Positions 15,835-18,572 of a stretch of 24,000 nt of DNA are shown here, in pieces. The notes beneath the pieces were generated by a model. The model saw only the letters and a list, made by a program, of their open reading frames with translations, searched no databases and was not told where the DNA came from. The stretch's first letter is position 1. The number at the start of each line of letters is the position of its first letter. The translations under genes were made by a program, and so were the position numbers. The stretch is from Vicinamibacterales bacterium (GTDB lineage Bacteria; Acidobacteriota; Vicinamibacteria; Vicinamibacterales; JAKQTR01): the NCBI GenBank assembly GCA_046496425.1, contig JAWOGY010000234.1:1-24000 (forward strand), written 5' to 3'.

Positions 15835-15867
15835 CCGGGGCCGCGGCCTGAGCAACCGCGGCCCCGG
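15835..15867. terminator. 12-bp perfect GC-rich stem-loop between convergent lpxC and the radical SAM gene (candidate bidirectional terminator)
   Basis: CCGGGGCCGCGG (15835-15846), a 9-nt loop, then CCGCGGCCCCGG (15856-15867). No U-tract. Confidence 0.55.
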
Positions 15868-15903
15868 GCTTGTACAGGCCGCGTGAAGGCCTTCGTGCGC
15901 GGC

Positions 15904-17265
15904 CTACACGACCCGGAGCGGCTTCAGCGTCGTCTGCGATCCGCAGGCCTCGAACCAGTCGATGCCCTCGCTGACGAGGTCGAACTTGAGCTGGTAGCGG
16001 CCGGGGTGGGCCGGCATGGGAATCTCGATCTCGACAGCGGCCTGCTCGCCGCCTCCGATCGTCTGCGGCAGCCATGCGCGGGCGTGGTCGCGGTTGAGGA
16101 CCGCGCCGCTCACATCGCACAACTGGGCGCCGAGGCGCACGAGGCGCCGGCCGTAGCTGGCCTCGCGCGGGAACGGGCGCATGGAGAGATTCCGCACGCG
16201 CGCCCGGACGGAGAGCGTCTTCCCGCGGCGCGCCACGAGCGGCAGCCCCGGCAGAAGCCCGGGCACCTCGATGCGCGCCCGCGGCATCGCGCCCGAAATG
16301 GCGTTGCCGAGGTTGTTCGTGTCCCAGATCTCGTACCTGACCCGTTCGTAATCGGGCGATCCGGGCACGAAGCGCCGCGAGAACGCGTCTTCGGGATGGT
16401 CCGTAATCTCCCAGGTCAGCCGGTCGGCGCCGAGTTCGGCGGCCATTTCCCGGGCGCGCCGCATCTCGTCGTCGCTGTCGTTCCAGGCGAAGAGGATATA
16501 GCGCCAGTTGATGACGGGGACGTCGCGGCCGGCCTTCCGCTTCTCGTCCGCCATCGCGCGCAAGTTGGCGATGGCCAGGTCGAAGCGGCCGCGCTGCCGG
16601 TAGCGCGCGTACGTCTCCGGCGATGCGCCGTCGATGGAGAAGGTCACCTCGTCGATGCCCGAGCGCGCGAGGCGCCGCGCCGACTCCTCCGTGAACGCCA
16701 AGCCGTTGGTGCTCGTGTAGAGGTAAATGTGCGGAAACGTCGCCTTCACGTACTCGCACATCTCGACGGCCCGCTTGTGCAGGAACGCCTCGCCGTAGTT
16801 GAAGAAATCGACGCGCCCGAGCGTGGGCCCCGCTTCGTCGATCACCCGCGTGAAGAGATCGACGTCGAGCATCCCGGCCTGGCGCGTGCGCGTGATGCCG
16901 GTTTCCGGGGCGCAGCAGGCCTCGAGGCACGAGATGTTGCACGCGGCGGTGCACTCGACGTAGAGGCGCGAGGGCTGCGGCGGCACCTCGAGACCGCGCT
17001 GCAAAGGCGCCTCGCCTTTCGCCAGCGGCAGTTTCAGCGGGCAATCGCCGCAGAACGCCGATCCGCCGCGGTTCAGGTCCTCGCGCAAGGCGGCTATCGC
17101 GGGGCCGGTCCAGATGTCGCGGAGGGACGCCGTGCGGGTGTCGCCCAGCACGCGATTCCCGTACGGATCGGCGCAACCGCAGACGATGCGGCCGTCGCAG
17201 AGCATGACGAGGGTGCTCCAGGGCCAGGAGCAGGTGAAGCGCGTCGCCAGGTGATGGAGGGCCAC
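15904..17265 (-). CDS. Atypical radical SAM protein: N-terminal SPASM/twitch-like Cys-rich region, core domain and C-terminal beta-rich domain
   Basis: 453 aa with a GTG start 5 nt after the upstream stop. Six Cys in the first 76 aa (C..PW....CDGRIVCGC...LRDIW...LR....CGDC). Cluster-site region YVECTAACNISCLEACC. FFNYGEAFLH (GEPLL-like), TFSIDG, and the YILFAWNDSDDEM motif. The C-terminal ~130 aa looks like an Ig-like beta domain (YQLKFDLVSEGIDWF). Confidence 0.75.
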   Translation of the reverse strand: MALHHLATRFTCSWPWSTLVMLCDGRIVCGCADPYGNRVLGDTRTASLRDIWTGPAIAALREDLNRGGSAFCGDCPLKLPLAKGEAPLQRGLEVPPQPSRLYVECTAACNISCLEACCAPETGITRTRQAGMLDVDLFTRVIDEAGPTLGRVDFFNYGEAFLHKRAVEMCEYVKATFPHIYLYTSTNGLAFTEESARRLARSGIDEVTFSIDGASPETYARYRQRGRFDLAIANLRAMADEKRKAGRDVPVINWRYILFAWNDSDDEMRRAREMAAELGADRLTWEITDHPEDAFSRRFVPGSPDYERVRYEIWDTNNLGNAISGAMPRARIEVPGLLPGLPLVARRGKTLSVRARVRNLSMRPFPREASYGRRLVRLGAQLCDVSGAVLNRDHARAWLPQTIGGGEQAAVEIEIPMPAHPGRYQLKFDLVSEGIDWFEACGSQTTLKPLRVV

Positions 17266-17270
17266 CGTCC

Positions 17271-17543
17271 CTACGGGTTCTTCTCGGACAGCTTCCTCAT
17301 GTACGCGCCGAGCCGTTCGTTCTCGTAGGTGACGCTGTTCAGGAAGAGGCTCTCCTGCAGGTAGGTGTCGCGCTCGTCTGGCGTCATCTGGCCGACCAGG
17401 TGGGCAATCTCCCGCGCCATGTCCTCGAACGACCGCTCGAGCTCCCTCCGGGCGGTTACCTCGTGGTACAGCGTCTCCATCACGGTGAGCAGGTCGCCGT
17501 CGAGGGGGATCTCCGCGCCGGTGGTGGTCTTGATGGTCCGCAT
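17271..17543 (-). CDS. Hypothetical 90-aa acidic, Cys-free, probably helical protein
   Basis: ATG at 17543, 1 nt after the STAS stop. The stop lies 5 nt before the radical SAM start. Its lower-GC, non-Arg-rich composition argues for real coding. I recognise no family. Confidence 0.6.
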   Translation of the reverse strand: MRTIKTTTGAEIPLDGDLLTVMETLYHEVTARRELERSFEDMAREIAHLVGQMTPDERDTYLQESLFLNSVTYENERLGAYMRKLSEKNP

Positions 17544-17544
17544 G

Positions 17545-17892
17545 CTACCCCTCGAAACTGGCCAGCGCGGTCGCTTCGTCGGCGTACAACTGGATGAAGT
17601 TGTGCGCCCCGGTCATGGTCAACATCGTTTCGACCCGCTTCTGCACGCCCGCGAGCTTCAGCGACCCGCCGGCCGCCGCCGCCTGACGGTACAGGTCCAT
17701 CAGGCACCCGATCGTCGCGCTATCGATATAGACGACGGGAGCGAGGTCAACGATCACTTTTCGCTCGCCTCCGGCGATCAGGCCCACCACGGCGGTCGAG
17801 AAATCGGACAGGAGGGGGTACATCAGGCGGCTCTCGGCGACGCGGACGACACTGATGTCGCGGACGTGGTCGATGGTCAGCTTCATGCTCAT
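17545..17892 (-). CDS. STAS-domain protein (anti-sigma factor antagonist, SpoIIAA/RsbV-like)
   Basis: 115 aa from MSMKLTIDHV. The VIVDL..VVYIDSATIGCL segment carries the conserved DSxxxG serine. ATGA overlap with the sigma-factor stop. The upstream part of the 299-aa track ORF is rejected. Confidence 0.8.
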   Translation of the reverse strand: MSMKLTIDHVRDISVVRVAESRLMYPLLSDFSTAVVGLIAGGERKVIVDLAPVVYIDSATIGCLMDLYRQAAAAGGSLKLAGVQKRVETMLTMTGAHNFIQLYADEATALASFEG

Positions 17893-18524
17893 ACTCCAGA
17901 ACGGCGGCCGGCCTGCCCGGCGTCCGCTCGCGGGCGCAGGCCCTTCTCTCTGAGACGCGTGATCTGCCGCGCAAGTTCGTGCCGGCCCCGGTTGATCCTC
18001 GACTTCACGGTGCCTTCCGGCAGATGCAGCCGGTCGGCGATCTCCTGGTACGACAGCTCCTGGATGTCGCGCATCACCACCGCCGTCCGGAGCGTCTCGG
18101 GCAGCTGCTGCAGCGCCCGGCGCAGCTCCTGGGCGAGGTCGAGGCGCTCGAGGATGACGTGCGCGCTCGTCTCGACCGACTGCGGCGAGAGGTCGTCGGC
18201 ATTCACGTCGCGGTTGATCGTCTCCCGCTCCTTCCGCACGCTGCGGTAGTGGTCGATGCAGAGGTTCCGGCTGACGCTGACGAGCCAGGTCTGGAAGTTC
18301 GCGCGCCGGTCGAAGGTGGCGAGCGACTTGAACACCTTCAGGAAGACGTCCTGCGTCAGGTCCTCCGCCTCGTCGTGCCGCCCGACGAACTTGTACGCGA
18401 CGTTGAACACCCGCCGCCAGTACTGGCGGACGATCTGCTCCCACGCCTGCTCGTCGCCCCGCAGGCAGCGCTCGATCAGGGTGTCGGGTTCCGCGGGCGT
18501 CGGCGTCGGGTCCATCGGGGTCAT
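17889..18524 (-). CDS. ECF-type sigma-70 family RNA polymerase sigma factor
   Basis: Region 2 (WEQIVRQYWRRVFNVAYKFVGRHDEAEDLTQDVFLKVF) and region 4 (LSYQEIADRLHLPEGTVKSRINRGR). I chose the ATG at 18524 because the track start TTG at 18572 is part of a TTGACA -35 box. Confidence 0.85.
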   Translation of the reverse strand: MTPMDPTPTPAEPDTLIERCLRGDEQAWEQIVRQYWRRVFNVAYKFVGRHDEAEDLTQDVFLKVFKSLATFDRRANFQTWLVSVSRNLCIDHYRSVRKERETINRDVNADDLSPQSVETSAHVILERLDLAQELRRALQQLPETLRTAVVMRDIQELSYQEIADRLHLPEGTVKSRINRGRHELARQITRLREKGLRPRADAGQAGRRSGV

Positions 18525-18543
18525 TGAGACGCAGTAACGTCGC

Positions 18544-18572
18544 AGAATACCGTGAGAAGGAGGGGGTGTCAA
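18544..18572 (-). promoter_or_regulatory. Sigma-70-type promoter TTGACA-N17-TATTCT for the sigma/STAS/small/rSAM operon
   Basis: On the minus strand, TTGACA is the complement of 18567-18572, the spacer is 17 nt, and TATTCT is the complement of 18544-18549. The ATG at 18524 lies about 13 nt after the predicted TSS. Confidence 0.6.

Follow-up and report, generated by a model that had tools for sequence, protein, structure and literature searches.

The Gene and Its Homologues

The stretch of DNA described here comprises 24,000 nucleotides of a Vicinamibacterales bacterium of the Acidobacteriota (assembly GCA_046496425.1, contig JAWOGY010000234.1, positions 1 to 24,000) and is referred to below, at its full length, as the window. 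A gene on its minus strand (15904..17265; GTG start, TAG stop), identified as an open reading frame (ORF) with homology support, encodes a 453-residue protein in which a twitch-type auxiliary domain is followed by a radical S-adenosylmethionine (SAM) core and an immunoglobulin (Ig)-like domain. Comparison with its relatives indicates that the protein is a real radical SAM enzyme variant, belonging to a widespread family without a characterised member, in which the SAM-cluster motif is best read as CX3CX4C and the auxiliary domain stands ahead of the barrel.

The G+C content of the window is about 70%, and long shadow ORFs therefore overlap the gene on both strands. Homology has settled the reading frame: of the candidates that were scored, 3444 are homologues at E<=1e-3, the closest being named radical SAM proteins of Vicinamibacterales with 88% identity. 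The GTG start is backed by residues that are invariant from position 3 onward in orthologues of 72-88% identity. Conservation has been followed in two sets of proteins, one of 125 full-length orthologues of about 450 residues (38-88% identical to the query) and one of 60 full-length proteins that represent the wider clade, each with the N-terminal domain. Distant relatives were gathered by an all-against-library HMMER search, which returned 314 proteins at E<=1e-30, and by a profile search.

In Pfam, the Radical_SAM family PF04055 matches residues 104-242 with 42.7 bits against a gathering cut-off of 29.5. Every NCBIfam match lies far below its own cut-off, so that the protein fits no curated NCBIfam family. 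The highest-scoring of them, TIGR04317 (tungsten cofactor oxidoreductase radical SAM maturase), reaches 86.3 bits of the 380 required and covers the core only (residues 98-283). The best matches to the core are all SPASM/twitch families, among them the tungsten-enzyme maturase, ScmF, MftC, AhbD, NirJ, MoaA, BlsE and PqqE. On these scores, NF033640, TIGR04317 and all other NCBIfam models were dismissed as families to which the protein could belong.

The SAM-Cluster Loop

The loop expected to hold the SAM-binding cluster spans residues 105-118 (16912..16953, minus strand) and reads C105-TAA-C109-NIS-C113-LEA-C117-C118. A sequence-only reading of the gene had noted that no exact CX3CX2C occurs at this site and had proposed CX3CX3C in its place. 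The first observation holds for the query and for all 125 orthologues, none of which recovers the standard motif through another register. The motif is thus non-canonical and conserved, and the proposed spacing has to be revised. In the alignment, C109, C113 and C118 are invariant (125/125), and the column of C117 holds Cys in 72 sequences, Val in 47, His in four and Ser or Ile in the remainder, giving 53 without Cys. C105 is likewise nonconserved, with Cys in 43 orthologues and Pro in 76. Since C118 never varies and C117 is often Val, the motif has been read as C109-x3-C113-x4-C118. As far as the alignment can tell, C117 is a dispensable neighbour of C118, and the last turn of the conserved motif is best read as two residues longer than that of CX3CX2C. 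When the protein is aligned to its nearest solved relatives, BtrN and BlsE, Ala116 takes the place of the canonical third cysteine. Among the 60 representatives of the wider clade, the second and third loop cysteines are separated by four residues in about 40, by two in 14, by three in only four and by five in two.

Two other accounts of this loop have to be weighed. The third ligand could be C117 in the present clade, restoring CX3CX3C, or C117 and C118 could both contribute, C117 acting, for instance, as a fourth ligand of the unique iron that can be removed. C117 is invariant in close Vicinamibacterales orthologues and is Cys in 72/125 overall, a few distant relatives (4/60) have an X3-spaced Cys alone, and a review describes a fourth cysteine on the radical SAM cluster of NifB, which provides a precedent. 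C118 is nonetheless present in 125/125, and the 53 sequences with Val, His, Ser or Ile at position 117 include two close relatives reading AVC. As Val can stand at this position, C117 is not an essential ligand of the family, and a ligand role for it in this clade is considered improbable. The other account holds that the altered loop abolished SAM cleavage, leaving a non-catalytic or purely redox iron-sulfur protein of the "pseudo-radical-SAM" kind. In its favour, the motif is not CX3CX2C and has no aromatic residue of the kind that normally stacks on SAM, and a weak match (30.5 bits) to an NCBIfam pseudo-SAM/SPASM family points in the same direction. Yet the three loop cysteines and all other SAM-binding motifs have stayed invariant over 38-88% identity, and most members of a large clade, which includes canonical X2 proteins as well, have the X4 spacing, a pattern that speaks for a tolerated change in loop length and not for decay. 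Loss of catalysis is therefore regarded as the less probable of these two already improbable accounts.

The motif of ThiC, CX2CX4C, also has four residues ahead of its last cysteine. Its cluster, however, is carried by a separate domain of unrelated fold. ThiC and the CXnCX2C variants can both be taken as precedents for SAM-cluster motifs outside the canonical form. ThiC is cited in the RadicalSAM.org paper as a family of radical SAM enzymes without CX3CX2C, and the motif variants that the paper lists are all of the type CXnCX2C. In those variants the first spacing is altered and the final CX2C is kept, whereas the query has the canonical spacing between its first two cluster cysteines and a lengthened one before the third. 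A full-text literature search returned no CX3CX4C radical SAM enzyme and no N-terminal SPASM domain, and the mentions of CX3CX3C that it found go back to a slip over NifB and to an unrelated motif in peptides.

A more far-reaching proposal is that CX3CX4C constitutes an undescribed class of SAM-cluster motif, dominating a large clade with N-terminal twitch domains and a plastic spacing of the third cysteine (X2 to X5), and that the longer loop and the relocated cluster alter the geometry of SAM binding or electron transfer, possibly bringing new chemistry to a sugar or lipid of the envelope. Taken as a whole, this proposal is thought unlikely. Radical SAM proteins are usually recognised by CX3CX2C, a rule on which RadicalSAM.org and similar databases also rest; in the present clade as a whole, the CX3C part is kept and the last spacing lengthened. 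Should the enzymes be active, a final CX2C turn with an aromatic residue would not be structurally required, a point that would be of use for annotation rules.

The N-terminal Twitch Domain

Residues 10-77 (17035..17238, minus strand) form a twitch-type auxiliary domain made up of C12, a beta-hairpin, C29 (or C31), a helix and C72-x2-C75, an assignment that draws on the Pfam SPASM match, cysteine conservation, the predicted model and alignment with BtrN. Six cysteines (C12, C23, C29, C31, C72 and C75) lie within residues 1-76, and their resemblance to a SPASM/twitch domain, noted earlier from the letters of the gene, is borne out by PF13186, which matches residues 12-76 over its whole profile (1-67/67) with 34.6 bits against a gathering cut-off of 21.5. 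Four to five of the six are conserved: C29, C31, C72 and C75 are invariant in 125/125 orthologues and C12 is found in 124/125, with C23 replaced by Ser in 56/125. In the 60 wider-clade representatives, C12, C29, C72 and C75 are kept, and C23 and C31 are variable. To judge from these alignments, C23 is clade-specific, as is C105 of the SAM-cluster loop. The predicted model places a hairpin at residues 18-29 and two helices at 48-65. A phmmer alignment matches the domain to the twitch region of BtrN, and C12, C72 and C75 pair with cysteines of the BtrN auxiliary cluster.

The seven-cysteine SPASM signature with CX2CX5CX3C is not present in the protein. After the helix there is solely C72-x2-C75, and the next cysteine is the nonconserved C105. 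A single CX2C in this position argues for a one-cluster twitch domain over a two-cluster SPASM domain, so that the SPASM-like character proposed earlier can be retained as a Pfam match and the full SPASM assignment cannot; the domain is of the twitch type, with one predicted auxiliary cluster. The additional cysteines C23, C31, C105 and C117 were also considered as ligands of a third cluster, an idea that was rejected since among the 125 orthologues they do not come and go together.

Barrel, C-terminal Domain and Predicted Structure

Pfam, the predicted model, Foldseek and the invariant columns together place a partial (beta/alpha)6 radical SAM barrel at residues ~98-300 (16366..16974, minus strand). 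It contains the SAM-binding motifs YGE (~156-159), TNG (186-188) and SxDG (210-213), all invariant among the orthologues. The AlphaFold2 model, built on the 125 orthologues, has a mean predicted local distance difference test score of 93.6 and a predicted template modelling (TM) score of 0.90, and shows six beta/alpha units at residues 100-287 followed by an all-beta domain at about 330-452. In Foldseek searches of the PDB, the barrel is best matched by BlsE (7vob, E 5e-11), with viperins, SuiB, anSME, MoaA, NifB and PFL-AE also found. The same searches gave no structural neighbour for the whole protein, only for single domains, with a best query TM-score of 0.36.

The C-terminal domain (residues ~325-453; 15907..16293, minus strand) appears to be an NBR1-like Ig or beta-sandwich domain, as indicated by the model, by Foldseek and by Pfam matches in two orthologues. 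An Ig-like beta domain had been suspected at this end of the protein, and both the all-beta fold of the model and a Foldseek match to human NBR1 (4ole; probability 1.00, target TM 0.59) agree with it. Further structural matches are Ig-like domains of GH3 glucosidases and of a sialidase. The Pfam family PF16158 (N_BRCA1_IG) scores 14.9-16 bits in the query against a cut-off of 28, which is passed by the orthologues P0340 (30.0) and P0309 (28.9). The tail residues N359, G379, D429, E433 and W437 are invariant among orthologues.

Domain Order and Its Precedents

The SPASM/twitch match (12-76) precedes the barrel (98-300), which is the reverse of the order in characterised SPASM/twitch enzymes, as the first reading of the gene had stated. 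A paralogue in the same genome (L088:1459-2409, minus strand, contig C96) allows the two arrangements to be compared directly. It has 317 residues, the order of core followed by twitch, a CX3CX2C motif (CNAKCTFC) and no Ig-like tail. By BLASTP, its core is 28% identical to that of the query (E 2e-20), and its C-terminal twitch domain is 42% identical to the N-terminal domain of the query (E 3e-13). The same two modules thus exist in both orders, which supports a domain permutation.

The earlier proposal of an uncharacterised subfamily defined by permuted order and motif stands insofar as the protein fits no curated family, but the order itself is not new, since N-terminal placement of a twitch domain has precedent. 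The NCBIfam model NF033640 ("N_Twi_rSAM") is matched by SPASM/twitch segments at its profile positions 5-74 and by radical SAM cores at positions 107-314, and N-terminal Cys domains are mentioned within the SPASM/twitch megacluster in the RadicalSAM.org paper. The query nevertheless reaches only 28 bits against the NF033640 cut-off of 170, and the best of 20 clade members reaches E 4e-15, so that a different family is indicated; nothing in the genome of the query exceeds that cut-off.

BtrN, the butirosin 2-deoxy-scyllo-inosamine dehydrogenase (4m7t/4m7s) and founding twitch enzyme, is together with BlsE the best PDB match by sequence (E 1.8e-5). Core and twitch region both align, and BtrN resembles the query in its compact (beta/alpha)6 barrel and its single auxiliary cluster, which in the query is predicted. 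It differs in having the twitch domain behind the barrel, a CX3CX2C motif and no Ig-like tail, and its identity to the query is low. BlsE, the cytosylglucuronate decarboxylase, acts on a sugar derivative and is the top structural match (216 columns, 20% identity). The alignment with BlsE, however, is limited to the barrel (query TM 0.36), BlsE has the canonical motif and the usual domain order, and the NCBIfam BlsE model gives the query 27 bits against a cut-off of 400.

Other members of the clade show further arrangements. The distant proteins P0195, P0200, P0253 and P0255 (680-975 residues) carry two to four DUF4214 repeats behind the core, P0233 has two SPASM-type segments ahead of the core and P0161 has such segments behind it. 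Domain shuffling is thus frequent in the clade with N-terminal twitch domains.

Proposed Reaction and Substrate

From the domain order, conserved cysteines, SAM-binding motifs, fold, Ig-like tail and family distribution observed here, we infer an active radical SAM enzyme with two [4Fe-4S] clusters, a CX3CX4C SAM site, an N-terminal twitch domain and an Ig tail, acting on a substrate other than a neighbour-encoded peptide, with an envelope sugar, cyclitol or glycan as the best guess; the probability of this reading is put at roughly 0.5. In such an enzyme, the SAM-binding cluster would be held by C109, C113 and C118, and SAM would be cleaved reductively to a 5'-deoxyadenosyl radical that takes a hydrogen atom from the substrate. 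The auxiliary cluster would be bound by C12, C29 (or C31), C72 and C75 of the twitch domain, which would have been moved from its usual C-terminal place to the N-terminus, and by analogy with BtrN it may pass or accept an electron during turnover. A probable role of the conserved NBR1-like Ig domain is in holding or capping the substrate. If this is how the enzymes work, an auxiliary-cluster domain can function from either end of the chain, which would be of use in understanding the electron route to the active site.

The gene is the last of a packed operon on the minus strand, preceded by genes for an extracytoplasmic function (ECF) sigma factor (17889-18572) and a STAS protein (17545-17892), both with Pfam matches, and for a 90-residue acidic protein without a Pfam match (17271-17543), which lies 5 nt ahead of the radical SAM gene; the junctions vary between an overlap of 4 nt and a gap of 5 nt. 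This layout suggests another role, that of a maturase of proteins or peptides, which in Vicinamibacterales would modify the 90-residue protein or some further component of the ECF sigma-STAS module and so tie radical modification to sigma control. The tight order of the four genes is kept in 76/80 Vicinamibacterales loci, SPASM/twitch enzymes are best known in the literature from peptide and protein modification, and in other clades the gene is found right behind small regulatory proteins such as a GTPase with a Roadblock protein. The synteny, however, extends to lysA, uvrA and lpxC, and since these are equally kept, conservation within one order may be plain inheritance. The ECF sigma-STAS-90-residue operon is confined to Vicinamibacterales: none of the three partners stands next to orthologues of 38-48% identity or next to two copies that are 72% identical (L048 and L064). 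The enzyme has also been seen, in part, to remain fully conserved in genomes without the gene for the 90-residue protein. That protein has no cysteines and is evenly conserved over its full length, like a folded protein and unlike a leader-plus-core precursor, and a Pfam scan of the radical SAM protein found no peptide-binding domain resembling a recognition element (RRE) for peptides that are ribosomally synthesised and then modified post-translationally (RiPPs). For its absence beside distant orthologues, its even conservation and its lack of Cys, the 90-residue protein has been rejected as a RiPP-type substrate in the principal interpretation, and a maturase role is on balance held to be unlikely.

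A conserved partner across clades was sought by tblastn with 26 neighbour proteins and seven window proteins against 20 further genomes, and none was found; the only synteny recovered was within families (PCMT, polysaccharide deacetylase, radical SAM and DUF2851 proteins). As no neighbour is conserved, a common cellular molecule is favoured over a dedicated peptide, and the best guess is a cell-envelope substrate of the sugar, cyclitol or glycan type. BlsE and BtrN, the closest relatives with solved structures, have a sugar and a cyclitol respectively as substrates, which has been counted as a hint to the substrate, as have lpxC, which converges on the gene in the window, and the nucleotide-sugar epimerase/dehydratase gene that precedes the canonical paralogue. 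In an Aminicenantes-like clade (57-60% identical to P0123), the gene stands within a row of four GT4 glycosyltransferase genes and a Bac_transf gene. In one family it lies directly behind a polysaccharide deacetylase gene in seven genomes, in another clade it overlaps a gene for an SGNH/GDSL hydrolase, and at further loci it is found beside heptose and lipopolysaccharide-core genes, near inositol-1-phosphate synthase or near CDP-alcohol transferases. The link to envelope glycans recurs without being a rule, and it is held to be less likely than not.

Several points weigh against the envelope-substrate enzyme outlined above. The aromatic residue that canonically stands between the last two cysteines is missing (C113-L-E-A-C-C), and SAM binding may depart from the textbook form. 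Most characterised SPASM/twitch enzymes have peptide or protein substrates. Glycosyltransferases are common in the genomes that carry the gene, and the glycan-neighbour cases are raw counts. At ten further loci from other families, chosen less selectively, Pfam scans of the neighbours returned unrelated genes, among them peptidases, a catalase, a small GTPase with Roadblock, Band 7, major facilitator superfamily transporters and a ParA-like ATPase, so that the link to glycans is not general.

Two observations on the surroundings of family members may be added. The gene of the 317-residue paralogue lies 3 nt behind a nucleotide-sugar epimerase/dehydratase gene, and the two look like a sugar-modifying radical SAM pair. 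In one family of Acidobacteriota, the orthologue lies directly behind, without a gap, genes for a small Ras/Arf-like GTPase and a Roadblock/LC7 protein resembling the MglA/MglB pair (L100:9318-10399, minus strand; L105:1523-2604, plus strand). The Pfam identification comes from L100, and ORF sizes and layout agree between the two loci. This is a second coupling of the enzyme to a small regulatory module, besides that with the ECF sigma-STAS-90-residue genes.

Transcription Unit and Distribution

The sole promoter-like site found for the operon lies ahead of the sigma factor gene (18572-18544). Two GC-rich hairpins (15835-15905) are located directly behind the stop codon of the radical SAM gene and before that of lpxC, and neither is followed by a U-tract. 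The hairpin at 15835-15867 has a 14-pair stem, with 12 exact G-C pairs and two more, one of them G-U. The predicted folding energy of 15835-15905 is -51.9 kcal/mol (z = -3.2 against shuffled sequences). A simple terminator scan returned nothing at 15835-15905; the hairpins may nonetheless form a two-way terminator for the convergent radical SAM and lpxC genes.

Members of the family are common in the Acidobacteriota of soils, which are abundant and biochemically little known, and pending the identification of a substrate the practical stakes are modest. The gene itself is patchily distributed, being present in 39 of 301 sampled Acidobacteriota genomes, and several complete genomes of the same order lack it; it is an accessory gene. 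Broken orthologues, split into two frames or carrying an in-frame TAG, have been found at G082:C2:2266235-2267541, G130:C15:1988962-1990264 and G069:C7:132574-133875. In part of one family the gene seems to be undergoing decay, in keeping with an accessory role.

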